Source of the DNA: Polynucleobacter sp. 86C-FISCH
GTDB taxonomy: Bacteria; Pseudomonadota; Gammaproteobacteria; Burkholderiales; Burkholderiaceae
DNA: 32,000 nt
Direction: 5' to 3'
Assembly: GCF_018882415.1 (NCBI RefSeq)
Contig: NZ_JACVOL010000001.1
Coordinates: 875,531-907,530 of the forward strand
In this document: in pieces, positions 3,260-32,000 of the stretch
Layout of the letters: each line of letters opens with the position of its first letter
Numbering within the stretch: position 1 is the stretch's first letter
Notes under the pieces: generated by a model
The model's database searches: none
Told to the model about the DNA's origin: nothing
Seen by the model: only the letters and a program-made list of their open reading frames with translations
Made by a program: the position numbers and the translations under genes

Positions 3260-3780
3260 TTGATTTCCAAAGCGGCTACATTCTGCGCCCGGTAAATCCG
3301 GTCTTTATTTACTTCAGCTTATTTTGTGCGCTGCTATTAAATCTGCTGCCGATTGGTAATTATGGTTGGGTGCCAGATTGGTTAATTCTGTGCATCGTGT
3401 TTTGGAATATTCATCAGCATCGCTATGTGAGCGTGATCACCGCCTTCATTCTGGGCTTGATGATGGATGTTCACAACTCCGATCTACTTGGCTTGCATGC
3501 CTTTAGTTACTCGCTTGTTGCTTACGTTGCCATCTCCTGGCACAGGCGCATCGTGGCTCTCACCGTGCTTTCACAAGCACTGCATCTACTCCCGATTTTC
3601 TTATTGGTATCACTCTTTCCCGTGCTGGCACATTGGTTGCTAAGCGGCGAACTTTATTGGTGGGCTCTCACAGGTGCTATTCAAGCGCTGATAGAGGCAA
3701 TGCTCTGGCCAATAGCGACGCGCATCCTACTTGCGCCACAGCGTCGTCCTATAGATGTTGATCACAATCGACCTCTCTAA
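3256..3780 (+). CDS. mreD: Rod-shape determining protein MreD
   Basis: A 174-aa polytopic membrane protein with a 4-nt ATGA overlap onto the mreC stop. Its operon position is canonical. Confidence 0.85.
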   Translation: MIDFQSGYILRPVNPVFIYFSLFCALLLNLLPIGNYGWVPDWLILCIVFWNIHQHRYVSVITAFILGLMMDVHNSDLLGLHAFSYSLVAYVAISWHRRIVALTVLSQALHLLPIFLLVSLFPVLAHWLLSGELYWWALTGAIQALIEAMLWPIATRILLAPQRRPIDVDHNRPL

Positions 3781-5696: not shown

Positions 5697-6829
5697 CTAA
5701 AGTTCAAGGATTTTTCTTTAGCATCTTTGCTGGATTAGACCGCCAGCTAGGCCTTATTCTGCTTGGCTTAGCGGCTATTGGCTTTTTTACTTTTTTATCA
5801 GCAAGTCAAAATACTCCCGTACAAATTGCAGAAGAGTTGCGCAATCTTGCGCTCTCCTTTGTGGTGATGTGGATCGTTTCACGCATACCGCCAAAATGGT
5901 TAGAGATGGGTGCAGTTTGGATTTATGGGTTTGGTGTTGCTCTTTTAATTGCAGTAGCTGCATTTGGATTAATCAAAAAAGGTGCGCGTCGCTGGCTCAA
6001 TATTGGAGTTGTGATTCAACCATCTGAAATTATGAAAATTGCAATGCCACTCATGCTTGCTTGGTATTTTCAAAGGCGCGAGGGCATTCAAAAAAACTGG
6101 GACTATGCAGTTGCCGCCATTATTTTAGCGATCCCTGTTTTTTTAATTGCACGTCAGCCCGATCTAGGAACCGCTCTCTTGGTTTTTGCTGCGGGACTTT
6201 ACGTCATTATTTTGGCGGGCCTGCCCTGGAAATGGATTTTGCCTTTTGTTGCTCTAGGCGTTATTGGCATTCTGCTAATTATTATTTTCGGCAGCACCAT
6301 CTGCGCACATGATGTAGTTTGGCCGCTTGTACATAATTATCAAAAGCATCGTGTTTGCACTTTGCTAGATCCAACTAGCGATCCATTAGGCAAAGGCTTT
6401 CACACCATTCAATCCATGATTGCGATTGGCTCAGGTGGATTCTTTGGTAAGGGTTGGTTTCAGGGAACTCAGGCACATTTGGAATTCATTCCAGAAAAAC
6501 ATACCGACTTTGTGTTTGCCGTTTTCTCCGAAGAGTTTGGCCTATTAGGCAACCTAGTATTGCTTGCACTTTTCTTCGCTCTGATTAAAAGAGGACTCGC
6601 CATCTCTGCAAGTGCACCCAATTTATTTACAAGACTTCTGGGCGCTGCTGTAACTTTGATCTTCTTTACCTATGCGTTTGTGAATATCGGCATGGTGAGC
6701 GGTCTATTGCCAGTTGTTGGGGTACCGTTACCATTTATTAGCTACGGTGGTACTGCGCTCGTTACCTTAGGATTTGGTGCGGGCATATTGATGAGCATTC
6801 ATCGCCATCGCCGCTTAGTGCAAAGCTAA
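5678..6829 (+). CDS. rodA: SEDS-family peptidoglycan polymerase RodA
   Basis: A 383-aa polytopic protein with the motifs QPSEIMKIA, HTDFVFAV and PLPFISYGGTAL. It overlaps the mrdA 3' end by 19 nt. Confidence 0.95.
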   Translation: MEKSPLTKVQGFFFSIFAGLDRQLGLILLGLAAIGFFTFLSASQNTPVQIAEELRNLALSFVVMWIVSRIPPKWLEMGAVWIYGFGVALLIAVAAFGLIKKGARRWLNIGVVIQPSEIMKIAMPLMLAWYFQRREGIQKNWDYAVAAIILAIPVFLIARQPDLGTALLVFAAGLYVIILAGLPWKWILPFVALGVIGILLIIIFGSTICAHDVVWPLVHNYQKHRVCTLLDPTSDPLGKGFHTIQSMIAIGSGGFFGKGWFQGTQAHLEFIPEKHTDFVFAVFSEEFGLLGNLVLLALFFALIKRGLAISASAPNLFTRLLGAAVTLIFFTYAFVNIGMVSGLLPVVGVPLPFISYGGTALVTLGFGAGILMSIHRHRRLVQS

Positions 6830-6867
6830 ATACAAATTGTTTTAAAAGTCCGCAATTCTTGAGGAAA

Positions 6868-6897
6868 TAAAAAAGCCCGGCATGCCGGGCTTTTTTA
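6868..6897. terminator. Bidirectional rho-independent terminator between rodA and the HU gene
   Basis: A perfect 16-nt GC-rich palindrome GCCCGGCATGCCGGGC (6875-6890) is flanked by an A-run on the left and a T-run on the right. Confidence 0.85.
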
Positions 6898-6912
6898 TCA
6901 ACAAAGAAAGAA

Positions 6913-7197
6913 TTACTTCTTACGCTTGTTAACAGAATCTTTAAATGCTTTACCAGCAGAAAACTTAACAGTTTTTGCAGCAGCGATTTTGAGTGGCTCG
7001 CCAGTTTTTGGGTTGCGACCCATACGTGCAGCACGCTTGCCAGAAGCAAAAGTACCAAAGCCGATCAGTTGTACTGAGTCACCTTTAGTAACAGCTTTGA
7101 TGATTGTGTCGATTGCAGAATTCAATGCGAATTCAGCTTTGGCTTTAGAAATCTCCGCGTCGTCAGCAATCGCTGCGATTAGTTCGGCTTTGTTCAA
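6913..7197 (-). CDS. hupB: Nucleoid-associated DNA-binding protein HU
   Basis: The sequence [11 protein letters not shown]...[43 protein letters not shown] is a classic HU/IHF fold. I place the start at the TTG at 7197 because TAAGGAG lies about 7 nt upstream. The longer 106-aa ORF in the track adds a non-homologous N-terminus. Confidence 0.9.
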
Positions 7198-7310
7198 GTG
7201 AAGCTCCTTATAGATATTGATGTCAGCGCACATTACGCTTACATGATTTTAACCACAAAAAATTACAAAAATAAAGTTGCGTTACAGCAATTTTTTAATA
7301 CGACTACAAA

Positions 7311-7676
7311 CTACTCATCCAAAACTACGATATCAGAAACAAAATACTCCGTATCGCCAAAACAGGTTGTCGGCAAACCGATGTGTTGCTCATACTTTAG
7401 GGCAACCTTTTTTCCTAAATTAGCATTTATTTTTTGCGCCACAGCATCTTCACGCACCGTAAAGAGGAATTTTTCTGACATAGTGCCTGGCATAGAAACC
7501 ATAGCCAACTCACCTTCCCAGGTTTTGCATACATAGCCGCGATTAGAGAATTTCTGCACATATCCAGCGCGCTCACCGCTTCCGTAGCTCCAAGTGAGCA
7601 TCCCCCATGTATAGGCCGAAATACCCACTAACCCAATTAAAACAAGGCTTAAGAGCCACTTTATAAAGCTATTCAT
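7311..7676 (-). CDS. Conserved membrane-anchored hypothetical protein
   Basis: A 121-aa ORF with one N-terminal TM helix (WLLSLVLIGLVGISAYTW) and a soluble beta-rich domain. I do not recognise a family. Confidence 0.6.
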   Translation of the reverse strand: MNSFIKWLLSLVLIGLVGISAYTWGMLTWSYGSGERAGYVQKFSNRGYVCKTWEGELAMVSMPGTMSEKFLFTVREDAVAQKINANLGKKVALKYEQHIGLPTTCFGDTEYFVSDIVVLDE

Positions 7677-13662: not shown

Positions 13663-15312
13663 ATTAACTGGCGCAAAATTACCATCGAAACCTCCACCAC
13701 CAGCACGCCAGGCGCAGAAGTACTTAGACGCCGCAGCTTTGCCATCATCTCTCACCCAGATGCGGGTAAAACTACGCTTACTGAAAAATTGCTGCTCTAT
13801 GCGGGTGCCATTCAAATTGCTGGCAGCGTTAAAGCCCGTAAAGCAAGTCGACATGCAACCTCCGACTGGATGGAGATTGAAAAGCAACGGGGTATTTCCG
13901 TAGCAAGTTCTGTGATGCAGATGGAATATCGTGATTGCATCATTAACTTGTTAGATACTCCAGGTCACCAAGATTTCTCAGAAGACACTTACCGAGTATT
14001 AACTGCAGTTGACTCTGCTCTCATGGTGATTGATGCCGCTAATGGCGTTGAATCACAAACATTACGCTTGCTGGAAGTATGCCGCGCACGCAATACGCCT
14101 ATTGTCACCTTCATCAACAAGATGGACCGTGAGGTAAAACCACCAATGGAACTCATGGACGAGATCGAAACTGCTCTCGGCATTGAAGTGGTTCCATTTA
14201 CTTGGCCAGTTGGCATGGGTAAATCTTTTGCTGGTGTGATTGACATTGCCAATATGCGGATGCGCATGTTCAAAGCGGGCGAAGATCGCGTTACCGAAGA
14301 CTCCCATGCGGTGGTTGATGTGAATGATCCGGCCCTTAAAGAGCGCCTAGGTGCTGATCTAGAGAATGCTTTGGCTGAAGTCGCGCTTATTAAAGAAGCG
14401 ATGCCTGCATTTGATTTGGAAGCCTTTTTGGCAGGGCGTCAGTCTCCAGTCTTCTTTGGATCCGCAATCAATAACTTCGGCGTGCGCGAGATTCTGAACA
14501 CACTAGTTGAATTAGCGCCTTCGCCAGGTTCACGCAAAGCATTGCAGCGCGAAGTGAGTCCCGCAGAAAACAAATTCTCAGCAGTGGTCTTTAAGATTCA
14601 GGCCAACATGGATCCGGCACATCGCGACCGAGTGGCATTTTTAAGAATCTGCTCTGGTCATTTTCAGCGCGGCATGAAGCTCAAGATATGTCGTAATGGC
14701 AAAGAGGTGCGTACCAATAATGCGCTTTCCTTCTTGTCACAACGACGCGATATTTTGGATGAAGCTTTTCCTGGCGACATTATTGGCTTACCTAATCATG
14801 GCTTGCTTCGTCTTGGTGACACATTAACCGAAGGCGAACAGCTTCAGTTCACCGGCCTGCCATTTTTTGCGCCTGAAATTTTCCGCATGGTTGAGTCTGC
14901 AGATCCACTGCGTTCAAAACAATTGCGAACTGGACTGATGCAATTAGGCGAAGAAGGTGCTATTCAAGTCTTTAGACCAATGGCCGGTGGCACGATGCTG
15001 CTGGGTGCATTTGGCCAGCTCCAGTTTGAAGTGGTTAGTCACCGACTCCAAACTGAATATGGCGCATAGGTGCGTCTATTACCAGCTCGCTACAGCCTGG
15101 CGCGGTGGGTAAGCTCAGACGACCCTGTTGCGCTAAAGAAATTTACCCAAGAAAACATTCATCGTATGGCCGAAGATGTTGTAGGTGCATCCGTTTTCCT
15201 GGCATCGCATAAATCGGAATTAGACGTTGCTCAACAACGCTGGGAATCAATTCAATTCCACGCACTGAGAGAGCATGCCGGTCTAATTTATCAATCAGAT
15301 TTAGCAGGCTAA
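13663..15312 (+). pseudogene. prfC: Peptide chain release factor 3 (prfC), interrupted by an in-frame TAG at 15067-15069 and lacking a canonical start codon upstream of its P-loop
   Basis: The frame is open from 13663. It encodes ...[43 protein letters not shown]... (G1 motif at about 13741-13776), DTPGHQDF and NKMD. After the TAG the same frame continues with conserved RF3 C-terminal sequence (VRLLPARYSLARWV...FHALREH) to 15312. It may be a pseudogene, a sequencing error or a readthrough gene. Confidence 0.85.
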
Positions 15313-15334: not shown

Positions 15335-15580
15335 TTAACGCGGCGCCTTGCAATCAAACACAGCAACCAACTGAGTATCACTGCTTCTGAATGAAGCCGT
15401 CTTGCCGTATTGGGCACAATACGCATTTGCCTTTTTTGTTAACTGCTCAATCGATTCTCCGCTACTATTTAAGAAAGTAACGTGATTGGAGTCAGAAGCA
15501 TCGGTACACACCGCGGCACAAGCGCTCAATATAAATATGCAGCTTACGCCAACGATGAAATTTTTTAGTAATGTGTTCAT
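15335..15580 (-). CDS. Small putative lipoprotein
   Basis: An 81-aa ORF with a signal peptide and a lipobox-like ILSAC. Its ATG directly abuts the stop of the upstream DUF2798 gene. Confidence 0.6.
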   Translation of the reverse strand: MNTLLKNFIVGVSCIFILSACAAVCTDASDSNHVTFLNSSGESIEQLTKKANAYCAQYGKTASFRSSDTQLVAVFDCKAPR

Positions 15581-19124: not shown

Positions 19125-19316
19125 GCCGCTCCCCCTGTCCTTGATACCTGAGAGATTCACCCTAAGCGTAGCTTAGGGCTTGCTCCTTCGGTGCACCATA
19201 AAAATGGTGGCTCTCCAGACGGCTATTTAGGATAAGCAGTACCTTCCTGGTGGATACCTGAGCGTTCATGGGAGTTTGCGCCTTCGGTGGAGGGAGACCC
19301 CTCACTCTCCTGCTTA
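19125..19316 (-). promoter_or_regulatory. Tandem glycine riboswitch (two aptamers)
   Basis: These are minus-strand reads. Aptamer 1 is AAGCAG-GAGAG...CACCGAAGGCGCAA...CTCAGGTATCC...GGTACTGCTT, with P1 formed by AAGCAG/CTGCTT. Aptamer 2 is CTGGAGAG-CCACC..GGTG-CACCGAAGGAGCAA-GCCCTAAGC..GCTTAGGGT-GAATCTCTCAGGTATCAAGGACAG. Both match the conserved cores of the glycine riboswitch family (Rfam RF00504, from memory). Confidence 0.85.
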
Positions 19317-21220: not shown

Positions 21221-21246
21221 AAATAAAAAACCACCCGGAGGTGGTT
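21221..21246 (-). terminator. Rho-independent terminator immediately 3' of the tRNA-Phe fragment
   Basis: On the minus strand the hairpin AACCACC-TCCG-GGTGGTT is followed by TTTTTTATTTT. It begins 12 nt after the CCA end of the tRNA fragment. Confidence 0.8.
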
Positions 21247-21257
21247 TTAGTATTTCT

Positions 21258-21302
21258 TGGTGGCCCGGGGCGGAATCGAACCACCGACACAAGGATTTTC
21301 AA
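21258..21302 (-). other. 3' half of tRNA-Phe(GAA): displaced att-site remnant, not an intact tRNA
   Basis: The minus strand reads TTGAAAA-TCCTT-GTGTC-GGTGG-TTCGATT-CCGCC-CCGGGCC-A-CCA. That is the anticodon loop with GAA, the 3' anticodon stem, the variable loop, the T-arm, the 3' acceptor strand, the discriminator and CCA. The required 5' acceptor strand GGCCCGG and a D-arm are absent from the next ~60 nt. Confidence 0.75.
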
Positions 21303-21700
21303 ATATCCTCCGATAGACCGCTTCGTCTATGAAATCAATTGGTTACGCCACCCCAGACATTTCGTGCGCAAAATTTACATAATGCGTCGGTCAAAATTTC
21401 GAGCGTAATCAGAAAGTTACGATAGCGTGCATAAACTGTGCACAAGCTCAAAACATTTATGTGTCAGTCAAAAATTAGTTCGGCCCCTACTCGTAGCGCC
21501 GAACTTTGGATCGAATCTCAGCAGTGCCACCAAGCTTTTTTCGAAATCCTGCGGAAGCCACACGCCACAGCTACGTGTCATGTCGTTTTAAACGACAATT
21601 CATTTTTGCTATGTCCGTCAGCCATGCAATTTGTCAACCAGCATTTAATTATTTCAACTTGAATACCCCATCTAAATGGCGGTTTTGACGTGATAGGTGA

Positions 21701-21964
21701 TTAGTCGCCATTTTTTGCTGAAAGGTAAGCTCGCCTTGCCATCACCTTATCGTCATCGGTAACCTGTGATTTAGCTTCAATATCTGAAGCATAGTAATTT
21801 TTTGCCAATTTACCGATCTTACTTTTCTGGGCTTGCTCCAATTTATCTTGAATAGTAGGTTGAGCTGGGGATTGCTCTTGTTTACTAATTAGAAATTGAT
21901 TAATTAGTTGCAACAATTCAACCCTTTCTTGGTCACTAATCATTTCTGCCACCAACATAAGCAA
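21701..21964 (-). CDS. Hypothetical small protein (87 aa)
   Basis: The ORF is co-oriented with and downstream of the 145-aa ORF. It looks helical and acidic/basic mixed. I recognise no family. Confidence 0.45.
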   Translation of the reverse strand: MLMLVAEMISDQERVELLQLINQFLISKQEQSPAQPTIQDKLEQAQKSKIGKLAKNYYASDIEAKSQVTDDDKVMARRAYLSAKNGD

Positions 21965-22040
21965 CTCCTTTTCTTATATTTAGCTGGCTCATAAAAATGG
22001 GGCGCCTAAGCACCCCATCCATTTGTCGCTATAAACGACT

Positions 22041-22478
22041 TTACTTACCAAATCCCGCACGTACAGCTCCGCTGGCTTGCTCAATCTGTGCATCAAGCTC
22101 TCCAGCTTCAACAGCACTCTTAATAATCTCTAATGTTTTAATCAATTCTTCACCTGAGGCAACTTCAACTGCTGTTTTACCTTTTGCTAACTCGATTAAT
22201 TTGGCACCATAGCGCACGTTTAAGCACACTTTTCCATCCGCCGAAACAAACCACCACTGTCGCACACGCTTTTCTAATTCAATCGATTTTCTAGATCCAT
22301 CAACATCTTTTACTGTTCTAAATCTTTTTACAGTAAAAGTCCCGCCCTCCTTGTGCGCCTTTGCTAACTGAATCTGCTCCCAGACTTTGGTGGATAACTT
22401 ATTTCTTCGTTGCAAGATTGGTGGAATAGCTGTTGGTTTTTTGGCATTCACAAGTTTTAATCCATTTAATGTGCTCAT
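22041..22478 (-). CDS. Hypothetical island protein (145 aa from the preferred start)
   Basis: An ATG at 22478 (MSTLNGLKLVNAKK...) sits 6 nt downstream of a strong AGGAGA. The track ORF extends 10 codons further upstream without an RBS. I cannot name a family. Confidence 0.6.
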   Translation of the reverse strand: MSTLNGLKLVNAKKPTAIPPILQRRNKLSTKVWEQIQLAKAHKEGGTFTVKRFRTVKDVDGSRKSIELEKRVRQWWFVSADGKVCLNVRYGAKLIELAKGKTAVEVASGEELIKTLEIIKSAVEAGELDAQIEQASGAVRAGFGK

Positions 22479-23205
22479 TTCATTTCTCCTATTAGTTAAT
22501 GGGCACACTTAAGTTAATGTCAGTTTTCCAAGAAGAGCAACCGAAATCATGTCAAATCTAATATTTCAACTCAGCTTCTTAATCCTTTTATTTGGTTTAG
22601 CTAAATATCTATGACTAATAAAGCAGAGGAAAGCTTTATTCGTCAACAATTACTACTGAAATGAGAAGTGGCACTCAGTTGTTATGTCACCCTAAACCTA
22701 GTCAACCGTGTTCGTAGGGATGGAAATTCTGAGCAGTAGCAGAGACTTGTTATCACCATCCTTTACAGGACGCCATTAGCATTGCTAGCTAATTGATACG
22801 AGAATATTTGTACAGCATAAAGTCAGTAGCTTTTAAAGCTACAGTGACACGAGAAAGCCCTGCTTACACAGCAACTTTCAAACAAGACAAAGGTAGCCAC
22901 TTATGCTTTTGTCATTGTTGCGTTTTAAAGCCGCACATAAAAGGAGAAAGCGAAACCGCCCTTACCCAATGTGGTTGTGCCCTAAGTGGTGTAGTAAAAG
23001 AACTCAGCAAAAGTCTACTTCTACACTGTGCCCGTTGCTTAAGGCTCAGTGTAGGTTGAATCTAGCAAATGCCCAACAGCAATACTCAGTAGTCTTAAGA
23101 AAAAAAGTGTGATGAGCGATAAGCGAAGAACGAGCGAACCAGTTCGCTCTAATACATTTATTAATGTCATAATTAATCTCGTTCTCTATATGAAACAGGA
23201 AATAT

Positions 23206-23595
23206 ATGCCGAAGAAAATCAATCCAAATTCACCAGATAACTTACTAGGCAAGTGGTTTGAGTCTATCGACATATACGAGATCGATAATGACTTAATGGG
23301 TACCTCAAAAGAATACATATTAGCAAGAGGTGCACTTTCACATCTTCTCAATTTTGCAGACCAAAATAATAAATTGATGCAAATGTATAACTGGCTTCTC
23401 TCCAATGAAGGCTCTGATTTTTTAGAAAATCACTCCAGAGCAAGTCAATTTGTCTATTTCGAATTGAAAGATCTTTCTTACGCTATAAACTGGGAAAACT
23501 ATATCTCATCAAATGATGTTGATAGCATTCTGGCTCTCAAGGAATGGATAGAGTTTTATCAATGCCCTCTTCCTTCTTATTTGACGCTCAAATAA
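23206..23595 (+). CDS. Hypothetical protein (129 aa) in a very AT-rich segment
   Basis: GGAAATATATG gives a possible weak RBS. The ORF is followed by a long AT-rich hairpin at 23709-23742. I recognise no family. Confidence 0.45.
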   Translation: MPKKINPNSPDNLLGKWFESIDIYEIDNDLMGTSKEYILARGALSHLLNFADQNNKLMQMYNWLLSNEGSDFLENHSRASQFVYFELKDLSYAINWENYISSNDVDSILALKEWIEFYQCPLPSYLTLK

Positions 23596-23708
23596 ACCCA
23601 ATACGCTTAAATTTTTCATTTCAAATACGCGTATATGCAATGTTAATAAATAATTGCTTGTAGGGCTTCTAGCAAAGTCTTGGAATTTTTCTGAATTTAA
23701 TCCCATTA

Positions 23709-23742
23709 AAAATGTAATAGAACTGCTGTTCTATTACATTTT
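23709..23742. repeat. 15-bp perfect inverted repeat (hairpin/operator) carrying the TATTACATTT motif
   Basis: The repeat is AAAATGTAATAGAAC-TGCT-GTTCTATTACATTTT. A third copy of TATTACATTT lies at 23835-23844, just upstream of the recombinase RBS. Confidence 0.7.
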
Positions 23743-23855
23743 CTAGCTAACCACTTGATATTAATAAGGAAATACTGAAGGCATATTTCGGTTGCTCAAA
23801 CCAAACCAAAGAAAACATACTGTAGACGCTTATTTATTACATTTAGGAGCTACTT

Positions 23856-24422
23856 ATGTCACAAGCAAAAATCTTAAACCCCGTTGAACTACGCCGCGTG
23901 CTTGATCACGTATCCACACGCAAGCATTCTGCTCGTAATCGTTGCGCCCTGCTACTTACCCACTATGCAGGAATGCGTGTTGGCGAGGTGTCTAGTTTGC
24001 GAATTAGCGACGTTTTGAACGACAGCGGCACAATTAAAGAAGAAATACGTCTCATGCCAGACCAAACTAAGGGGAAACACGCTCGCACCGTTTATATCAA
24101 TGCCCGCATGCAAAAAGAGCTGGCTCAGTACATCAAAAGCTTGAAAATTAGAGATATAGAGAAACCTCTGTTCTACACACAAAAGAGGGATGGCTTTTCA
24201 GCAAACACTTTGACTCAGTATTTTTTCTTTCTCTACAGAAGGGCGGGTGTTGATGGGGCAAGTAGCCATAGTGGACGCCGTAGCTTTTTAACGGGGCTAG
24301 CTAATAAGGGTACGGCCATACATATTTTGAAAAGCCTAGCAGGTCACAGAAACATCGCAACTACTGCTTCGTACCTATACTCCAGCCCAACCCAACTAAA
24401 AGCGGCCGTAGAACTTATTTAG
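23856..24422 (+). CDS. Small tyrosine recombinase, catalytic domain only (FimB/FimE-like size and layout)
   Basis: A 188-aa ORF with the catalytic residues in order: R (GMRVGEV), K (TKGKH), HxxR (HSGRRSF), H (GHRNIATT) and Y (ASYLY). An AGGAG RBS precedes the start. There is no N-terminal arm-binding or SAM-like domain. Confidence 0.85.
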   Translation: MSQAKILNPVELRRVLDHVSTRKHSARNRCALLLTHYAGMRVGEVSSLRISDVLNDSGTIKEEIRLMPDQTKGKHARTVYINARMQKELAQYIKSLKIRDIEKPLFYTQKRDGFSANTLTQYFFFLYRRAGVDGASSHSGRRSFLTGLANKGTAIHILKSLAGHRNIATTASYLYSSPTQLKAAVELI

Positions 24423-25305
24423 AAGCCTTCTTTGCTGATTGCGACTTTTTATATCGTTGATATATTTCTTCGTAGTTAAAGTCAGGCAAGTCAATTGGCG
24501 TAGAGCATGGGAAATTGCCCCTCGCCGCATGCTCTACAGTTCGCTTAGCCTTTAGTAAGAATCTACTGGTCAATATTTGCATGTTGATTCTTTGATCAGT
24601 AGTTTTTGAGGTTACCTTTACCGCCTTGGCATCTAGTCCCTCCATATTGGCTGGGCTCACGTTTGCAATTACACCTAATCGCCATAGCTCTAAATTAGGA
24701 TTGGCAGCCTTGTTTCTCAATAAATGAATCATGGTGAATAGGGGCGCAGATCTCAATCTTTTTGCCGCTAACGATTTTTTAGCTTTCTGCGCCTTTACCG
24801 GTACAGACACCCCTGCTTGATCAATTAACTTAGTTACTTGACTCAATACATATCGCTTATTCATCCCCAGCGGCACTGAAAGGATTAGCGATGGGACTTC
24901 ACCCTCCTGCATCCGGGACGTTTTAAAGTAATGATCTAAAGCACGATGAAAGGCAGAATCAACCTTCTCCCCTTTTTCAACATTGGCAATAAGTCTGACT
25001 TTGGGCTTTTCAAAATCAGTTCCGTAGATATAAATGCCGCGCTCTTTCCACCACTCATTAAATGTAATAGTAGAAAGATCTCCAAATTCTTCGTAGGTGG
25101 ATAGAACTTGATCAAAGTCTTTTGGCAAAGACTTTTTCTCCGCCCTGCTTAACCCTTCGTTATTGGCCTTTCTAGCCAGCTCGTATGTTGGGCTTAACTT
25201 CATAAATTCCAACATCAGCATTACGTAGCCCTTAATTCCAACCGTAGACCACTCTTTCATGGCCTTTGTAGGCAATAAGTTGGCTGATTTTTTCTTAATA
25301 GGCAC
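24415..25305 (-). CDS. Hypothetical protein (296 aa), divergent from the 255-aa/AAA+ pair
   Basis: It has a GTG start at 25305. Both termini are Lys-rich and the central part looks globular. Its 3' end overlaps the recombinase 3' end by 8 nt. I recognise no family. Confidence 0.6.
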   Translation of the reverse strand: MPIKKKSANLLPTKAMKEWSTVGIKGYVMLMLEFMKLSPTYELARKANNEGLSRAEKKSLPKDFDQVLSTYEEFGDLSTITFNEWWKERGIYIYGTDFEKPKVRLIANVEKGEKVDSAFHRALDHYFKTSRMQEGEVPSLILSVPLGMNKRYVLSQVTKLIDQAGVSVPVKAQKAKKSLAAKRLRSAPLFTMIHLLRNKAANPNLELWRLGVIANVSPANMEGLDAKAVKVTSKTTDQRINMQILTSRFLLKAKRTVEHAARGNFPCSTPIDLPDFNYEEIYQRYKKSQSAKKASK

Positions 25306-25307
25306 AC

Positions 25308-25368
25308 AAAGATATTAACACTTAAGAGTGACTATTAACAGTCATTTTTTTAAAGTGTCAATATCTTT
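25308..25368. promoter_or_regulatory. Nested palindromes in the divergent promoter region (putative operator)
   Basis: The outer 16-bp inverted repeat is AAAGATATTAACACTT (25308-25323) and AAGTGTCAATATCTTT (25353-25368), with one mismatch. It encloses an inner repeat TGACT-ATTAAC-AGTCA, and ATTAACA occurs twice. Confidence 0.6.
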
Positions 25369-25445
25369 ACAGTGAATACATGGCAAGTGAGAACAAATTA
25401 ATTCACAAACCATACTTTTAAACACACATAGAAAGGTAGTAAATC

Positions 25446-26213
25446 ATGAACACATTAGTTAACGAAGTAACAGTAGCAAACAACGTCGTTTCAAACGACA
25501 CAGCAACCATCAACTTTGATGCAAGTAAGCCATTACTTAACTTAGAGGCTAAACGCATCTATTGGGAGCAAGGAGCATATCGCACCAGCAACCAAGAGTT
25601 GTATGGAATTCTTGCCGAATGTCTTGGGTATGCATCAATCACCTTAAGTACGAAACAAGCGAGGGCGAGAGCTGAAGCATTAGAAGAGTTCTTTAAGACT
25701 CGCGGGTATAAACATAGCGCAGATATGCCTCTTGTTACTCGCGTTGTTAAGGCTGTATTTGGTAACGTTGATAGACGACGTATTAGCACCTATTCCTTAG
25801 TCCTGCGACAAGCAGTTAAAGAGGGCGTTACAGCACTTGATCTGCCAACATGGATTGAAGATAAAGGTGGCGTTCAAGAAATCAAACTTGGTCATAGCGC
25901 AACCTATGTAAGCCCAAAAGCAAAAGCTCAAATTGGCAAACAATACTTTGATGGAAAAGTAATCCTTGGCAATGCCAAATCTGAATTGCTATCACATGTA
26001 GCTGATGCCGAGTTTATGGGCACATCTTGTGTGTTGCTAGCAGAGCAGATGGCCGATGGCAGTTTTGATATTAAAGCTGTTGTTCGCTCTACTTCAGTTG
26101 TGAATGCGGCTTACGTGGCTCTTTATGGTCACCAAAACAAAGTTATGGAAGCTGCCAAAAAAGAAGTTGAAGCGGCTAATGATGCTGTCGGCAATATTGC
26201 TAAACAAGCTTAA
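25446..26213 (+). CDS. Hypothetical protein (255 aa), upstream partner of the AAA+ ATPase
   Basis: GAAAGGTAGTAAATC precedes the ATG. The protein looks mostly helical. It lies 50 nt upstream of the ATPase gene on the same strand. I recognise no family. Confidence 0.65.
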   Translation: MNTLVNEVTVANNVVSNDTATINFDASKPLLNLEAKRIYWEQGAYRTSNQELYGILAECLGYASITLSTKQARARAEALEEFFKTRGYKHSADMPLVTRVVKAVFGNVDRRRISTYSLVLRQAVKEGVTALDLPTWIEDKGGVQEIKLGHSATYVSPKAKAQIGKQYFDGKVILGNAKSELLSHVADAEFMGTSCVLLAEQMADGSFDIKAVVRSTSVVNAAYVALYGHQNKVMEAAKKEVEAANDAVGNIAKQA

Positions 26214-26263
26214 TCAATTAACGGGAATGTTATGAGCATTCCCCATTCAGAAAGGATATAAAA

Positions 26264-26944
26264 ATGTTAATCAAACAAGGGGGTGTTTATGAACCGCAAA
26301 CTCTTAATGACATTATTTTCGGTAACCCCGAAAGTAAATTGCGAATTTATGACATTGTCACAGGTGCCGAGCCATTACCTTCAAGCGGCAAATCAGCCAT
26401 TCTTCTCTATGGAGTCTATGGCACAGGCAAAACAACCATGGCAAAAATGCTGCCTGACGCACTCGAAAAAGGTAAAACAGGTTTAGAAGTAAACATGCCT
26501 GCTGACTTTATTGGTTGCCAACAAGGACTTAATGGTCCGCAAGTGATGGATTTAATTGGAAAGATAACATCAACTAATTCATTCAACACTAGTGGACTTC
26601 ACTACATCATTATTGATGAAGTGGATAACTTAACTAAGCAGGCGCAAGCTAGCCTTAAATCCGCACTTAACTGTCAAAGATGCATATTTGTTTTAACCAC
26701 AAACAATATTTCATTACTTGACAGGGGCATGCTTGATAGATGTGTCTTGGTAGAAATGAATGCGGCTAATGATGCCCAGCTATTACCGATAGCTCATCAA
26801 TTATTAAAAGATATTGGGGTTGATATTTCTGATGCTGAATTATTGCCAACAATTAGGGCGGCCAATGGTTCGCTTAGGAATATTTCTCACAATGTACGAC
26901 GGTTAATACAACGTCAAAACATACCTTCTAACATCATCTTTTAA
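26264..26944 (+). CDS. Clamp-loader (RFC small subunit/DnaX/gp44)-like AAA+ ATPase lacking the C-terminal collar
   Basis: It has Walker A (GVYGTGKTT), Walker B (IIIDEVDNL), sensor-1 (VLTTNN), an SRC-like arginine-finger motif (MLDRCVLVEM) and a sensor-2-like motif (ANGSLRN). It opens with the clamp-loader-style YEPQTLNDIIF. The ORF is only 226 aa. Confidence 0.8.
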   Translation: MLIKQGGVYEPQTLNDIIFGNPESKLRIYDIVTGAEPLPSSGKSAILLYGVYGTGKTTMAKMLPDALEKGKTGLEVNMPADFIGCQQGLNGPQVMDLIGKITSTNSFNTSGLHYIIIDEVDNLTKQAQASLKSALNCQRCIFVLTTNNISLLDRGMLDRCVLVEMNAANDAQLLPIAHQLLKDIGVDISDAELLPTIRAANGSLRNISHNVRRLIQRQNIPSNIIF

Positions 26945-26951
26945 CAAGAGT

Positions 26952-28226
26952 CTATGCCAATTGCTCTGCCGCCATAGTAGGAGTTAGTTTGGAATAGTGC
27001 CGCTCAATCATCGCGGCACTATTTCCCATTTGCTTAGCCAGCGTGTGAATATCAGTCTTATTCTCCAGTAGCTCTAAAGTCGCATATGTATGACGCAATG
27101 AATACAAAGTACGCATTTGCCCATCTTGACTCTTACCCAATCCACTATCACGCATGAGTTTCTTAAATGTCCCATCTATACGCAAAGGCTGATGTCCGTC
27201 TGCCATTACAAATATCTTTTGCGGGGCACGAGATTCAAATAATCTATCAAATGGAATGTCATATACGGCTTTTTGACGACTATGTAATCGTCTAAGAACA
27301 TCAATAGCCCTATGTTTAGCAATTAACCAACGCCCACCAGTTTTGCCATCCACCCATATACGCAAGTACTTCTTGCCATCATTTGTGTGCCACTCAATGT
27401 TATTCCAACAGATATTAAGTGCCTCAGTGCCATGCCGCATTCCAGTCAATAACAGCATCTCTACGTAATCTCGCACTAATGGACGAATCTCACGCTCAAT
27501 CTCTAGACGACCTTCTTTAGCCCACCTCTCCATATAGTCAAATAACTTGGTAATCTCTTCGCGGCTAAATGCTGGGCGAGTTTTGCCCTTGTGCCCTCGG
27601 GAAGTTAACTTAGGGATTGCCACACGCTCACTAATCCACCCCTTATTAACAGCCGTCTGCTGTAACTTTGTCCAAGCACTAGAAAAGTTCATTAGGGTGC
27701 TGGCTTTGGGCACTAGTCGCATTTGTCTGTTTCGCCAAATCTCAAACTCATGAACGTCTGTGTAGGTTATTTCTTCTAGTCGCTTATCCTGAAAGTAAGG
27801 CAAGAAGTATTTCTCAATACAAGTGATGTAACTTAGGTAAACCACCTTACCAATGCCTTCATCCAAATCACGTCGCATTTCGTACAGAGTGGTGTGCGCT
27901 ATTTCTGCGAACGTAGGAGCTTTTTGCGCAAGCCCCAAACGCTGGCGAAATCTGGCTTCATCGTATAAGTCACAGGCCACTCTGACAGCATGCTCAATTG
28001 AAGCTTGCTTAGTTGAAACACGCTCCCATGTGCCGTTTTGTCGTTTAAAACGACATTGCCAGAGAGGGCTATTTGGTCTACGGAAGATAACAACCTCACC
28101 ATCACGCAGATAAAGCTCTGCGGGCTCTGCGTATTTAAGTTGGCTAAGTGTTGTGGGTTGGTGATGCTGAGGTGGTGAGGGTATAACTTCTAGATTTATA
28201 AGTTTAGTTACTACGCCCTTAGGCAT
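26952..28226 (-). CDS. Tyrosine-type site-specific integrase
   Basis: A 424-aa ORF with an N-terminal arm/core-binding region and a C-terminal catalytic domain (LLLTGMRHGTEAL, YSLRHTYATLELL, IERHYSKL). Confidence 0.9.
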   Translation of the reverse strand: MPKGVVTKLINLEVIPSPPQHHQPTTLSQLKYAEPAELYLRDGEVVIFRRPNSPLWQCRFKRQNGTWERVSTKQASIEHAVRVACDLYDEARFRQRLGLAQKAPTFAEIAHTTLYEMRRDLDEGIGKVVYLSYITCIEKYFLPYFQDKRLEEITYTDVHEFEIWRNRQMRLVPKASTLMNFSSAWTKLQQTAVNKGWISERVAIPKLTSRGHKGKTRPAFSREEITKLFDYMERWAKEGRLEIEREIRPLVRDYVEMLLLTGMRHGTEALNICWNNIEWHTNDGKKYLRIWVDGKTGGRWLIAKHRAIDVLRRLHSRQKAVYDIPFDRLFESRAPQKIFVMADGHQPLRIDGTFKKLMRDSGLGKSQDGQMRTLYSLRHTYATLELLENKTDIHTLAKQMGNSAAMIERHYSKLTPTMAAEQLA

Positions 28227-28229
28227 GGA

Positions 28230-28262
28230 CTTGCTGTAAAAATTTTGAACTCATACAGCAAG
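28230..28262. repeat. 9-bp stem hairpin between the helicase stop and the integrase start
   Basis: The hairpin is CTTGCTGTA-N15-TACAGCAAG. On the minus-strand RNA its 3' arm ends 3 nt before the integrase ATG. On the plus strand it is followed by TTTATTTT. Confidence 0.5.
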
Positions 28263-28302
28263 TTTATTTTCAGAGATTAGGATTGGGCAACCTACGATAA
28301 GG

Positions 28303-31300
28303 CTATTTATTCAGGGAGATGTATGCTCCATTGCGCTGAAACAATTTACCCACCTCCCTGTCTAATACCTTTTGAATAACGATTTTTAAATCGGGTCCGC
28401 ATCTCTGGAAACCAAACAATCTAGATACTTGCTGTACAAGTTCAGCATCTTCTATTTGTACACTACTTTTAACTAAATGCTCTAACGCAACAGCTATCTC
28501 AGCAGGAGGAATGTATTCAGCCTTTTCAAGATTCTTATTAACAACAGATGATCTATTCCGCACAACTTTGTTAACCTCTCCAGCAACAGACCAAAAGCCA
28601 CCTTCATTTGTAAGTCCATTTGCTAGCCTTAAGCCCTCAACCGTAGCCGCAACAATCCTTGCTCCAGCCTTCTCTAAGTCAAATGCCTTGGCAACCCTTC
28701 TTGCCACTTCATCTTGATGAATTGGAGCCTCAATCTCAACAATCTTTTTGACTAGCTTTGACCTCTCATAAACAGAAACTTCGTGGGGAGCCTTGTTTCT
28801 TGAGAAAAATTTCTCATTAGATTCAACATAAGGAACGACTACATCTCTTGGCTCATCCACAATTGCTTGGGGCTCAAAAATATCGACGCTTGGCTCAACC
28901 ACCTCTGGGTTAACTTCTTCTATCTCGCTAGGGTTCTGTAGAGAAGCCAAATAGTCCAATAATTTTGCTTCTTGGTCTTGGCGCCTATGGAACCAATCAG
29001 TGCTCCATATTCTGTAAATCTTCCAGCCACGACTCTCTAAAATCTCTTGTCTAAGTCTATCTCTATCCCGCGCAGATCTAGAAGAGTGATAAGTTGCGCC
29101 ATCACACTCAATACCGCAATAAAACTTGTTTTCATTGCTTGGATCAATTACCCCTATGTCGATAAAGAATCCTGCCATACCAACTTGAGGCTGAACTTTA
29201 TATCCATGTTTAGCAAGAAACATAGCAACGGATTCTTCAAAATCACTATCAAACCCTTTTTTAGTATTGATAGGAACATCAAAGTATCCTTTTTCAGCAA
29301 ACTGAAGAAATTCTTTAAATGCGTTAACACCCAATTTCCCAGGAGCAGACTTAACATCTTCTGCCGTTATGGAAGAAAAGACGGTACACCTTTCCTTGGC
29401 GCGAGAAATTAATACATTCAGCCTTCTTTCTCCACCTTCTGCCGCTAAGGGCCCGAAGGTCTGAGTTAAGCGGCCATCCTCGCTTCTTCCATAACCAACA
29501 GAAATGAAGATTACATCTCTCTCGTCGCCCTGAATAGACTCTAGATTTTTAACAAAGAAGTGTTCATTTTTCGCATCAGAGAAAAATGCTTCTGTATCAG
29601 GATTTTTTCTTCTGTGCTCATCAACCAAATCACGAATAGCATCCCGTTGCGTTACCGAAAATGCCGCAACACCCAAAGATTTATTTGGATTAGCCTTAGC
29701 AAACGCAATTACTTCTTTGGCTATTAACTCAGCCTCCAAAAGATTTCTACCGCCATCAGAACCACCTCTTTTATAACCATTCTGCGGAGACTTAATAAAA
29801 GAAACTCCTAAGCCATCAGCATAGTTACTTCTTAATACAGAAGGTGGAAGCAGAAGCTTATCGTCATAAAAATTTCTATTGGATACAGCAATTAAACCGG
29901 GATGTTGACTTCGGTAATGCCATCTGAGCATCGCATTATTTTGAAATACTCCATCACACAACCCTAAAATACTTTCAACATCACTAAAGAAATAAGCGCC
30001 ATCATCATCAAGCATCTCTTCTTGATCTACATCATCAGTGAGTCTATTAAAGAAATTTGTAGGCGGGAGTTGCTTGGCATCACCCACAACTACAACCTGT
30101 TTAGCTCTCGCAATTGCTCCCAAAGCATCTTCCGGCTTAACCTGACTGGCCTCGTCAATTAATATCAAATCAAATGTCATTGACCCTGGAGCCACAAACT
30201 GGGCTATTGACATAGGGCTCATCAAAAATACAGGCTTAAGCTCATGAATGGCTCGCCCTGCCTTGGAAAGCAGTTTCCTTACAGGGAAATTATTTCTCTT
30301 TTTGGACATTTCTTGACGAATAATTGCCATCTCGCCATTAGTTCCCCGAGGACAATTTTTTGAATAATTGCCTAAAACTTCCTTGGCTGCTATTTTCAAT
30401 CTGTCTTTATCTGACTTGCGGAACTTGTCCAATTCACGATCTAATTTAAACGCATCAATATCTGACAAATAAGTGTCAGAAATAACCATAGCCTGCCATA
30501 TCTTTTCTAGGATTGAAACGCGAATTACAGCTTCAATATGATCAGCCTGAATTTGACCCTTAAATATTTTGTCGTGACACTCCGACCCAATCTCATCAAA
30601 TAAATTACTTAGATGGTTGCGAACTGTCGGCCATTCGTTAAATCTATCTAAATTTTCACTCCACTGCTTTACTTGTTTATCTAAATCCAAATATGGCAAT
30701 GGTTTTAAAAACTCAATGTTTATTTTTGCTGACTGACAAGAAGTTGTTAACTTGTCCTCAAACTCTTTATTTGCTTTTTTAAGATCGTCAACCAAATCCC
30801 AAGCACTTTGTTTGCCAACTAAATTTTTAGCAATGCGCAATCTAATGCCATCTAGACCAGCAAATATCAAATGCCAGTTAGCAACTTTCAATAAAAGCTC
30901 ATAATCACTTTGCTCTTGCTTCCAAAGCTCTTCTAATGCGCTCACCAACTTAACATCAGCGACCTTAATATCTTCTCTATTCTTTTTAAGTGTCAGCGCC
31001 TCATCCAAAAGAGCGAGCCGATTTTTAAACCCTTTAGGTAAATCGCTTTTTAATAAACCCTTTAGGCTTGCTATTGAGCTTCTATATACACCATTAAATA
31101 TTGAAAAAATTGAACCGCCACTACCCGCTAGCTTCACCCTTAATTCACCTATCGGGTAAGACTCCCATCCATCAATGAACTTCTCTTCAACAGTCTTTTT
31201 AGCTTTTTGATATCCCTCAATTTTCAAAGCCAACTCAGATAATTGGCTCGCATTTTCTTTAATCTTTTCTGAAAGAAGTATTTCGTATGAAACCGCAGGC

Positions 31301-32000
31301 GCATCTTTGATTGTTGCTGTTATTTCAAACAACCAATTCAAATCTTCTAATGTAAATTTTTCAACATCACTCAATTCCAACTGAATGGCAGCAATCACTC
31401 CATTGAATAGCGTTTGAGCTGAATTATTTAATAAACTTAATTTCTCAAATTCACCTTCCAATCTCTCGATATCCATTGGGGTTAATGAATTAGATGTAGA
31501 CATTCGCCAAGGATGATTTTCAGGAATGCCTGATTTTTTTAATCGCTCACTTAAATCACTTAAACGATTAGTTAAATCATCCAGCTTATCTTTTGTGTAG
31601 CCTATGGCATTTGGAATTTCAAAGAAGAAAACATTTAATCCCAAACGATGAAGTTTAGAAATTTCACCAAGTACCTCATAAGGAGTGAACCCCCAAGGCT
31701 CTTTACGATCATTTACTCGTTTGGCATGATTATTCAGAAAATTTTGACTTTCTGTTAATGCCTCAAACGCTTTGCCTGAAACTTGTAATTGATCAGGCAA
31801 CTCAACTGAATCTCTTATTTGCTTGAGAACGCCACTCTTTGTCGCCTTCCTACTATGTAGCTCAAGGCAGGTAACGCCCAAACCAACTTTCGCCAATCTT
31901 TCGTGTACAACATTAAGTGCTGCCATTTTTTCGGCAATAAACAGAACCTTCTTGCCTTGCGCCACTGCGGCCGCAATGATATTGGTGATTGTTTGAGATT
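28303..32000 (-). CDS. Giant SF1 (Upf1/Dna2-like, AAA_11/AAA_12) helicase fused to a DUF559/Vsr-like endonuclease fold and a DUF3320-like C-terminus; N-terminus off-window
   Basis: The frame stays open past the GTG at 31965 to the window edge (...SQTITNIIAAAVAQGKKVLFIAEKMAALNVV, the tail of a GKSQTI-type P-loop). Helicase motifs present are LILIDEASQV, VVGDAKQLPPT, WHYRSQHP, IQGDERDVIF and GGERRLNVLISRAKE. The nuclease-fold block is FFIDIGV...CGIECDGATYHSSRSARDRDRLRQEILESRGWKIYRIWSTDWF. Confidence 0.88.
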   Translation of the reverse strand, partial: SQTITNIIAAAVAQGKKVLFIAEKMAALNVVHERLAKVGLGVTCLELHSRKATKSGVLKQIRDSVELPDQLQVSGKAFEALTESQNFLNNHAKRVNDRKEPWGFTPYEVLGEISKLHRLGLNVFFFEIPNAIGYTKDKLDDLTNRLSDLSERLKKSGIPENHPWRMSTSNSLTPMDIERLEGEFEKLSLLNNSAQTLFNGVIAAIQLELSDVEKFTLEDLNWLFEITATIKDAPAVSYEILLSEKIKENASQLSELALKIEGYQKAKKTVEEKFIDGWESYPIGELRVKLAGSGGSIFSIFNGVYRSSIASLKGLLKSDLPKGFKNRLALLDEALTLKKNREDIKVADVKLVSALEELWKQEQSDYELLLKVANWHLIFAGLDGIRLRIAKNLVGKQSAWDLVDDLKKANKEFEDKLTTSCQSAKINIEFLKPLPYLDLDKQVKQWSENLDRFNEWPTVRNHLSNLFDEIGSECHDKIFKGQIQADHIEAVIRVSILEKIWQAMVISDTYLSDIDAFKLDRELDKFRKSDKDRLKIAAKEVLGNYSKNCPRGTNGEMAIIRQEMSKKRNNFPVRKLLSKAGRAIHELKPVFLMSPMSIAQFVAPGSMTFDLILIDEASQVKPEDALGAIARAKQVVVVGDAKQLPPTNFFNRLTDDVDQEEMLDDDGAYFFSDVESILGLCDGVFQNNAMLRWHYRSQHPGLIAVSNRNFYDDKLLLPPSVLRSNYADGLGVSFIKSPQNGYKRGGSDGGRNLLEAELIAKEVIAFAKANPNKSLGVAAFSVTQRDAIRDLVDEHRRKNPDTEAFFSDAKNEHFFVKNLESIQGDERDVIFISVGYGRSEDGRLTQTFGPLAAEGGERRLNVLISRAKERCTVFSSITAEDVKSAPGKLGVNAFKEFLQFAEKGYFDVPINTKKGFDSDFEESVAMFLAKHGYKVQPQVGMAGFFIDIGVIDPSNENKFYCGIECDGATYHSSRSARDRDRLRQEILESRGWKIYRIWSTDWFHRRQDQEAKLLDYLASLQNPSEIEEVNPEVVEPSVDIFEPQAIVDEPRDVVVPYVESNEKFFSRNKAPHEVSVYERSKLVKKIVEIEAPIHQDEVARRVAKAFDLEKAGARIVAATVEGLRLANGLTNEGGFWSVAGEVNKVVRNRSSVVNKNLEKAEYIPPAEIAVALEHLVKSSVQIEDAELVQQVSRLFGFQRCGPDLKIVIQKVLDREVGKLFQRNGAYISLNK

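Follow-up and report, generated by a model that had tools for sequence, protein, structure and literature searches.

Hhe is a DUF4011-containing, single-gene combination of a helicase with a Vsr-type nuclease (Gao et al., 2020; PADLOC model PDLC02194, NCBIfam NF042953). As a single gene it provides defence against lambda, T3, T7 and PhiV-1, and a nuclease-site (glutamate) mutant loses this defence. Candidate triggers of Hhe cluster among the DNA-metabolism genes of T7, one Bas63 gene is toxic in hhe cells only, and anti-hhe genes are carried by phages. The MTES_1575 Vsr-type restriction endonuclease (REase) was defined in a study that also described DUF3320 as winged helix-turn-helix (wHTH) domains (Anantharaman et al., 2013). 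Here we consider a relative of these proteins, a helicase-nuclease encoded at the right-hand end of a 32 000-nucleotide stretch of Polynucleobacter sp. 86C-FISCH (contig NZ_JACVOL010000001.1, positions 875,531 to 907,530), which in its full length is called the window below. A reading of the window made from its letters alone (the sequence-only reading) had described the DUF4011/DUF3320 family as one without demonstrated function. That view is outdated: Hhe has been validated and is nuclease-dependent, and a sister clade is covered in NCBIfam by an equivalog named 'anti-phage protein ProA'.

The gene occupies a minus-strand frame that runs without interruption for 1231 codons from the window edge (32000) to a TAG at 28303-28305, in agreement with the earlier description of one open reading frame (ORF) of more than 1230 aa continuing off-window towards its N-terminus; the product is 93-94% identical to proteins of 1579 aa. 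The in-window codons correspond approximately to residues 349-1579 of the full-length relatives, which places about 348 N-terminal residues off-window. Its first residues (SQTITNIIAAAVAQGKK) align from position 349 of the 1579-aa homologues, where they are preceded by GPPGTGK, and therefore the Walker A loop and the DUF4011 domain lie beyond 32000. Of GPPGTGKS, only the S is within the window, where it is the first residue, the remainder of Walker A being present in the 93-94% identical relatives, and the whole of DUF4011, which spans residues 42-206 in a 93%-identical full-length relative (P0001), is located past the edge. The ORF encodes the C-terminal 1231 residues of a single-polypeptide helicase-nuclease of about 1580 aa that belongs to the DUF4011/SF1B-helicase/MTES_1575-nuclease/DUF3320 family.

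Within this family, the fragment matches the PADLOC candidate PDC-S37 (model PDLC05009) with E=0 and 1244.7 bits over profile positions 322-1533 of 1550, and full-length P0001 matches it with 1621.5 bits over positions 5-1540 of 1550. A PADLOC search had been proposed in the sequence-only reading, and its outcome is this end-to-end match to a single-gene candidate. Judged from these profile scores, the family is PDC-S37, with NCBIfam ProA and the validated Hhe as sister clades. A protein search at E<=1e-20 gave 1308 homologues, most of them about 1570-1630 aa in length with the same architecture. At least 594 loci were confirmed, counting one genome per species; they range from Proteobacteria to methanogens and include representatives in Planctomycetota, Chloroflexota, Acidobacteriota, Bacteroidota and Methanobrevibacter. 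The family is frequent on large plasmids and chromids and nearly missing from phage genomes. A phage origin was rejected, as only 3 weak matches were present in 50,697 phage records.

Taking family identity, mechanism and solitary action together as parts of one reading, we consider it likely that the helicase-nuclease is interchangeable defence cargo, carried by a common freshwater island of the Polynucleobacter type in the variable slot that separates its tRNA-Phe from its integrase. Under such a reading, the Upf1-like motor would load on single-stranded or branched nucleic acid from an invading phage or plasmid and translocate 5'->3' using ATP. The winged-helix tail and the large helical insert could position or gate the protein on DNA, and the covalently attached Vsr-like nuclease would nick or cleave the DNA delivered to it. 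Replication of the invader would be stopped, possibly at a cost to the host, by selective degradation or abortive infection. The protein would act alone, and its adjacency to the integrase would mark an insertion site, not a common function. The 5'->3' polarity is that of the Upf1, Dna2 and RecD2-type SF1B enzymes.

Domain architecture

The features of the helicase-nuclease are as follows.

28303..32000, minus strand: helicase-nuclease gene, 3' 3.7 kb (ORF and translation; PADLOC PDC-S37; identity to the 1579-aa proteins)
31840..31998, minus strand: first part of RecA-like domain 1, right after the off-window Walker A (invariant columns S349-S397 of the alignment)
31906-31947, minus strand: motif Ia, VLFIAEKMAALNVV (motif mapping)
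30229..31839, minus strand: all-alpha-helical insertion within RecA-like domain 1, about 540 aa, residues ~54-590 (AlphaFold model, helices only, predicted local distance difference test (pLDDT) mostly 85-95)
29284..30228, minus strand: rest of the superfamily 1B (SF1B) helicase core (Pfam AAA_11/AAA_12; invariant columns; fold and PDB sequence matches)
30142-30168, minus strand: motif II, DEAS (LILIDEASQ)
30058-30096, minus strand: motif III, GDxKQLPPT
29866-29931, minus strand: motifs IV/IVa
29506-29532, minus strand: motif V
29392-29433, minus strand: motif VI
28951..29241, minus strand: Vsr-like PD-(D/E)xK nuclease (Pfam MTES_1575), with blocks FFIDIGV, IECDG, RDRDR and GWKIYRIWSTDW
28849-28923, minus strand: low-confidence linker before the winged helices (structure model)
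28312..28773, minus strand: two tandem winged-helix domains, DUF3320 region (Pfam DUF3320; model secondary structure; Foldseek)

Pfam matches on the in-window protein comprise MTES_1575, DUF3320, AAA_12 and AAA_11. Motifs Ia, II, III, IV, V and VI all fall on invariant columns in alignments of 24 and 55 homologues, so that the earlier claim that every SF1B/Upf1 motif is present holds for these six and fails for motif I (Walker A), which is outside the window. Apart from the P-loop, which is off-window, the encoded SF1B Upf1-like motor is intact, and ATP-dependent 5'->3' translocation is predicted from SF1B family membership. An AlphaFold model of residues 1-905 (mean pLDDT 83) contains two RecA-like domains. 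With Foldseek E values of 5e-8 to 2e-4 these resemble the domains of IGHMBP2, Dna2, senataxin, Aquarius, nsp13 and ZNFX1; the match to the Upf1, IGHMBP2 or Dna2 type of fold has E 5e-8 to 1e-5 and probability 1.0. The nearest PDB chains by sequence are IGHMBP2, Upf1, Dna2 and Sen1 (phmmer against PDB sequences). A search against PDB sequences found no solved structure for any close relative. The helical insert of about 500 aa that had been noted before motif II measures about 540 aa, from motif Ia to motif II, and is all-helical in a confident model. Foldseek matches were confined to the helicase core, and none covered the insert.

The nuclease domain is matched by MTES_1575 over residues 920-1016 with E 2e-35 and 121 bits, relative to a gathering score of 38.2. 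Thirteen of its positions are invariant among the 55 homologues (E85, C86, D87, G88, R98, R100, D101, W113, R117, W119, S120, D122 and W123). Its fold is similar to that of 3hrl and of the I-Bth0305I catalytic domain, with target-normalised template modelling (TM) scores of 0.75-0.81, root-mean-square deviations of 2.7-3.2 Å and modest E values of 2e-3 to 5e-3 (Foldseek). DUF559 (PF04480) scored under the Pfam threshold, at 19.7 bits relative to 20.6. On these scores the block is better filed under the MTES_1575 Vsr-like family than under DUF559; of the earlier designation as a DUF559/Vsr-like PD-(D/E)xK block, the Vsr-like part stands and the DUF559 part does not.

A model of residues 880-1231 (mean pLDDT 85) comprises a Vsr-like alpha/beta nuclease, a disordered linker and two winged-helix domains, replacing the long helical tail that had been expected in this region. 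Pfam DUF3320 matches residues 1081-1116 with E 2e-14, and the winged-helix domains resemble SelB WH2-WH4 and cullin WHB domains (Foldseek). The combination of nuclease and tandem winged helices in the model agrees with the published domain description (Anantharaman et al., 2013). Profile searches, which the sequence-only reading had named as a check on its nuclease and DUF3320 assignments, thus recovered both domains, and hidden Markov models and predicted folds agree with its overall architecture, in which a Vsr-like nuclease and then a DUF3320 tail follow an SF1B Upf1-like helicase.

The cargo slot and its island

To place the gene in its setting we compared the window with fetched loci, which are given handles of the form L104. 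The features that define the slot and the far end of the island are listed first, followed by the cargo found in the slot.

28227..28302, minus strand: helicase-integrase spacer, 76 nt (sequence)
28230-28262: inverted repeat CTTGCTGTA/TACAGCAAG, 9 bp, ending 3 nt before the integrase ATG
26952..28226, minus strand: 424-aa tyrosine recombinase, island integrase (Pfam Phage_integrase E 1e-5, just below the gathering threshold; RHTY...RHY motifs in the translation)
21258..21302, minus strand: 3' 45 nt of tRNA-Phe (GAA anticodon loop to CCA), distal attachment (att) repeat and island-chromosome boundary (sequence reading, alignment to tRNA-Phe genes)
21221-21249: hairpin and T-run after the tRNA-Phe fragment

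Window, L006, L087, L088: this helicase-nuclease
L104: last 380 codons of the helicase-nuclease, 96% identical (nuclease and winged-helix tail), 6343-7482
L089: three small ORFs, then the helicase (1.5-kb insert)
L105: Type III Mod-Res pair
L106: orphan HsdS
L107: insertion sequence, HsdMSR and an Mrr-like gene

Of the arguments from context, this interchange with restriction systems in the slot speaks most strongly for a role in defence. In copies that are 85-94% identical, DNA homology with the window is restricted to the gene, and nucleotide homology does not extend past its borders. Compared with its counterpart in L089, the helicase of the window shares 91% identity, whereas the figures for the integrase, the AAA+ protein and the 255-aa protein are only 46%, 69% and 59%. 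Since helicase identity is so far above that of the backbone, the cassette moved more recently than the backbone diverged. The earlier suggestion of island cargo serving nucleic-acid surveillance is supported by the filling of the slot with restriction-modification genes in sister islands and by the end-to-end PDC-S37 match. In this respect the sister islands provide natural evidence that the family is interchangeable with restriction-modification systems in a defined slot, which supports the candidate PDC-S37 assignment.

The integrase ATG is at 28226, downstream of the helicase stop codon on the same strand by exactly the 76 nt that had been reported. This arrangement, a same-strand gap of 76 nt in which a scan of the minus strand predicted neither a terminator nor a sigma-70 promoter, might suggest that the helicase serves the island and is coupled to the integrase, either in DNA processing during excision or replication or in excluding competitors from the tRNA-Phe site. 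Helicase and integrase are neighbours in L006, L087 and L088 as they are in the window, and in L089 a 1.5-kb insert separates them; the L104 remnant, a natural truncation of the cargo gene, is kept at the same 76-nt distance. We nevertheless regard such coupling as very improbable. Same-backbone islands without the helicase gene carry restriction-modification genes instead, and relatives of 85%, 72%, 65% and 56% identity reside in unrelated islands with other integrases or none nearby. Moreover, approximately 55 nt before the integrase ATG are kept whether the preceding gene is the helicase, its remnant or HsdS, and partly after the Type III Res gene; because this stretch is retained whatever the cargo, it belongs to the integrase unit. 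Co-transcription with the integrase as a functional unit, as the sequence-only reading had it, is therefore not borne out. The adjacency is best explained as reflecting a cargo insertion slot and not a dedicated operon, and read-through transcription into the integrase is possible.

The surroundings identify the island. The islands L104 and L106 begin with an intact tRNA-Phe gene and finish with an exact repeat of its 3' end, which is identical to window positions 21254-21302; the far-end repeats of the sister islands are 98-100% identical, and after the L104 repeat comes the redoxin gene that also adjoins the repeat of the window. Housekeeping genes (mreB, mreC, PBP2, rodA, lipid A acyltransferase, prfC and others) lie to the left of 21.2 kb, where the G+C fraction of the genes is 0.41-0.51, in comparison with about 0.37-0.44 to the right of 21.3 kb. 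From the repeat, the sister islands, the housekeeping flank and the drop in G+C we infer that the window probably shows the distal ~10.7 kb of a tRNA-Phe island, with the helicase gene pointing away from a tRNA-Phe gene expected beyond 32000. No tRNA gene was detected within the window by ARAGORN or by Rfam, including a low-threshold scan, and the tRNA-Phe fragment is about 7 kb away from the helicase gene. The placement in a tRNA-Phe island made earlier is accordingly upheld by the distal att repeat and the sister islands, with the amendment that the window holds the 3' 45 nt of the tRNA and no intact copy. Degenerate extra tRNA-Phe 3' ends were also seen on both sides of the sister islands, in L104 at 113-137, 801-825, 3432-3456, 14667-14691 and 15346-15370 and similarly in L105 and L106. 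These copies suggest repeated or tandem integration at the tRNA-Phe site.

Neighbouring genes of the relatives bear on whether the helicase-nuclease has a partner, and are as follows.

L006, L091: McrB and McrC upstream of the helicase
L087, L088: DUF4379 zinc-finger protein and DUF6994
L089: methyltransferase and rhodanese
L001-L005: a different island, with P4-type integrase, AlpA, Imm_superinfect, Schlafen-like helicase and AbiEii
72%, 65% and 56% relatives: toxin-antitoxin pairs, AbiEii, PLD-SNF2 helicase, Mrr-ResIII protein, NucS_C/DUF8426 proteins, CAP12/PCTIR TIR protein, integrases and transposases

The sequence-only reading had allowed for a multi-gene system with partner genes past 32000, and McrB and McrC, which immediately precede the copies of 93% and 91% identity (L006 and L091), would fit a helicase-nuclease that is one component of such a system. 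McrBC is a complete system by itself. In other copies of 91-94% identity, the upstream gene encodes a DUF4379 protein or a methyltransferase. Between L006 and L091, nucleotide identity is 75% for McrBC and 86% for the helicase, with a palindromic boundary site between them. When all ORFs within 10 kb of 80 distant loci were clustered, no conserved partner gene emerged: no neighbour family was present in more than 13 of the 80 loci, and among those 13 its position and orientation varied. The 56-94% identical relatives have no conserved neighbour. As no neighbour is recurrent in the 80 loci, the protein works without a dedicated partner, and we hold a partner just past 32000 to be extremely improbable.

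Several points weigh against the reading as defence cargo. The immediate neighbours in the 80 distant loci include few defence-type and mostly ordinary genes; several of these distant copies are within about 0.5 kb of tRNA genes. There are also two caveats to a universal defence role, as family members of some lineages resemble conserved species genes with surroundings unrelated to defence: in Pseudomonas aeruginosa the DUF4011 gene is a core gene flanking a defence hotspot, and in Ralstonia the homologue has a fixed megaplasmid position among diguanylate cyclase genes. Neither equivalog cut-off is reached: for ProA (NF058533, 1500 bits) the fragment scores 1010.6 and P0001 1305.5, and for Hhe (NF042953, 2000 bits) they score 750 and 967 over partial stretches only. 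In the literature searched we found no publication on PDC-S37 or test of it, and no source publication of ProA. The 5' end and Walker A are off-window, and the gene is naturally truncated in the sister island L104; an exact look-up of the integrase protein gave no record that would extend the contig, and a 34-nt pattern taken from the window end matched no metagenome contig exactly. Finally, what is proposed above on polarity, trigger and type of substrate (DNA or RNA) is drawn from knowledge of the family, and protection by PDC-S37 against phages or other mobile genetic elements is a candidate function.

Some of these points would suit a housekeeping helicase-nuclease that maintains the genome at stalled forks, R-loops or recombination intermediates in the manner of Dna2 or senataxin, its carriage on an island being incidental. 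The closest solved folds are those of Dna2, senataxin, IGHMBP2 and Upf1, species-wide conserved family genes occur in P. aeruginosa and on Ralstonia megaplasmids, ordinary genes of metabolism or repair make up most of the immediate neighbours in the 80 distant loci, and the family is spread over many bacterial phyla and methanogenic archaea. Against this, the gene is accessory in the present clade, being present, absent or truncated in syntenic islands and replaced there by restriction-modification systems; homology stops at the gene borders; the neighbours of close relatives are defence and mobile-element genes; and the relative Hhe, transplanted alone, gives phage defence. We judge the housekeeping role to be improbable and favour interchangeable defence cargo. 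With no solved close relative and no published mechanism found in the literature searched, the family is a reasonable biochemical target.

Cassette-edge palindrome, backbone and other features

A repeat finder returned a 19-bp inverted pair, at 21580-21598 and 28038-28056, whose members are copies of a 17-bp palindrome, TGTCGTTTWAAACGACA. The copies in the window are listed here.

28039..28055: palindrome TGTCGTTTWAAACGACA within the 5' coding region of the integrase, encoding CRFKR (repeat finder)
25484..25500: copy that differs at 1 position, within the 5' part of the 255-aa ORF
21581..21597: perfect copy near the distal island end, in the orientation opposite to the integrase copy
22024-22040 and 24008-24024: weaker copies

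The number of copies expected by chance is 0. The position within the integrase is occupied likewise in L087, L104, L105 and L106, and that within the 255-aa gene has equivalents in L089, L104 and L105. Perfect copies among the fetched loci occur solely in the helicase loci closest to the window (L006, L087-L091) and in the sister islands L104-L106, the last of which hold 7-9 copies each per 13-18 kb, mostly 0-25 nt past stop codons; single copies are present in four IMG/VR viral contigs. The palindrome was not found in chromosomal flanks, in islands with a 75%-identical integrase or in the 80 distant loci. Unrelated flanks, and the perfect recurrence of the site in many loci, led us to reject a chance repeat or duplicated gene fragment as the origin of the 19-bp pair. 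A genome-wide repetitive extragenic palindromic (REP) element is likewise unsupported, there being no copy in 21 kb of adjacent chromosome or in the chromosomal flanks of the sister islands.

A copy of the palindrome also precedes the helicase ATG by about 81 nt in L006, L087, L089 and L091, and L001 and L003 have a degenerate copy at this place. Pairwise homology among these loci starts 0-6 nt from the first base of the palindrome, and the DNA to its left is unrelated; therefore, the palindrome marks the 5' edge of the helicase cassette. Candidates for its nature are a recombination site, an operator for an island protein and an island-specific REP-like element. A bolder conjecture, which we think unlikely, is that the helicase gene is an exchangeable cassette in an undescribed cassette-shuffling arrangement, with the palindrome as the crossover or binding site of either island recombinase. 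If true, this would amount to integron-like swapping of defence genes without an integron integrase or attC.

The remaining backbone features of the window are as follows.

25446..26944, plus strand: two backbone genes running convergently to the integrase gene, for an uncharacterised 255-aa protein and a 226-aa AAA+ (clamp-loader-like) ATPase (Pfam, NCBIfam)
23856..24422, plus strand: small 188-aa tyrosine recombinase (Pfam Phage_integrase E 6e-25; kept in all sister islands)
22663..22800, plus strand: Polynucleobacter-1 RNA (RF01718; Rfam 90.4 bits)
22041..22508, minus strand: DUF6641 protein gene (Pfam; kept in sister islands)

This backbone (window 21303-28226) recurs in L104-L109 and L089 and partly in L007, and is very abundant in freshwater metagenomes. 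The integrase has 3078 homologues at E<=1e-10, many of them 60-92% identical, and occupies one conserved backbone in six further loci; it is adjoined by the AAA+/255-aa pair in L089 and L104-L109. The small recombinase measures 188-192 aa across islands, and a further backbone ORF has a length of about 245-296 aa. In the window, the small recombinase gene is preceded, at a distance of about 115 nt, by an inverted repeat (23709-23742) whose 15-bp arms match perfectly and are 4 nt apart (AAAATGTAATAGAAC/GTTCTATTACATTTT). The orphan Polynucleobacter-1 RNA belongs to the island backbone, as it occurs in four of five distinct loci (L104 12904-13041, L105 15939-16075, L107 9552-9692 and L108 754-894), usually near the DUF6641 gene and, in L107 and L108, just upstream of the integrase.

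Three further observations concern other parts of the material. The frame of prfC (release factor 3; 13663-15312, plus strand) contains an in-frame TAG at 15067-15069, directly after which the homologous frame resumes, and there is no ATG, GTG or TTG upstream of a conserved 12-residue block within the open frame; a pseudogene, an error in the sequence or initiation at a non-canonical start might each explain this. A glycine riboswitch aptamer (19125-19228, minus strand, 59 bits) lies in the housekeeping part, with no minus-strand ORF of at least 100 aa close behind. L007, a contig of a Polynucleobacter metagenome-assembled genome with a 66%-identical helicase homologue, has a group I intron match at 1225-1449 (RF00028, 56.6 bits).

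Comparison with described systems

The island as a whole can be set beside tRNA-integrated defence islands with a cargo hotspot, such as P4-like satellites, with which it shares an integrase at a tRNA gene, a conserved backbone and a slot for varied defence systems. It also resembles integron cassette arrays in having a short repeated site at cassette edges. It differs from both in its integrase, which is of an atypical 424-aa family, and in its repeat, a simple palindrome of 17 bp. We rejected a classical integron, since there is no integron integrase and the repeat is this palindrome and not attC: the integron integrase model TIGR02249 had no match to the 424-aa integrase, and matched the 188-aa recombinase weakly, with 40.7 bits relative to 265. 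The backbone and the palindrome are the least explained parts of the island. With its two recombinases, AAA+ pair, Polynucleobacter-1 RNA and cassette-edge palindrome, the backbone may merit more attention than the helicase, which is a further instance of a very widespread family and brings no new principle.

The protein shares its helicase fold and motifs with Dna2, Upf1, IGHMBP2 and senataxin, of which Dna2 is likewise a fusion of the motor with a PD-(D/E)xK nuclease. The nuclease of Dna2 is N-terminal and of another PD-(D/E)xK family, whereas that of the present protein is C-terminal and Vsr-like, and none of the four enzymes has a counterpart of the ~540-aa helical insert in RecA-like domain 1. 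The SF1 helicase is also found in proteins of the MTES_1575 type, along with the REase of novel Vsr-fold kind and a C-terminal pair of wHTH domains (DUF3320) (Anantharaman et al., 2013). MTES_1575 itself adds transglutaminase and HEPN domains, neither of which was detected by Pfam in the Polynucleobacter protein.

Of the defence families, Hhe is the more distant in comparison with ProA; it is homologous in the C-terminal half of the helicase and in the nuclease (E 5e-166), and differs in that the alignment is limited to approximately residues 450-1045 of the fragment and in that Hhe proteins have about 1800-1900 aa. ProA is the strongest NCBIfam match of the fragment. Pfam analysis of P0001 and of a Yersinia protein (P0085, 1854 aa) that passes the ProA cut-off with 1645 bits gave the same domain order in both: DUF4011, an SF1B helicase split by an insert, MTES_1575 and DUF3320. 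The helical insert of P0085 is about 250 aa longer, so that motif II is near residue 1210, in comparison with 955 in P0001. PDC-S37, a candidate system only, for which a defence role is predicted, is the same end to end: a single gene with no conserved partner and no sequence-level difference from the present protein. By these matches, the gene is an already catalogued kind of single-gene helicase-nuclease and a relative of Hhe and ProA.

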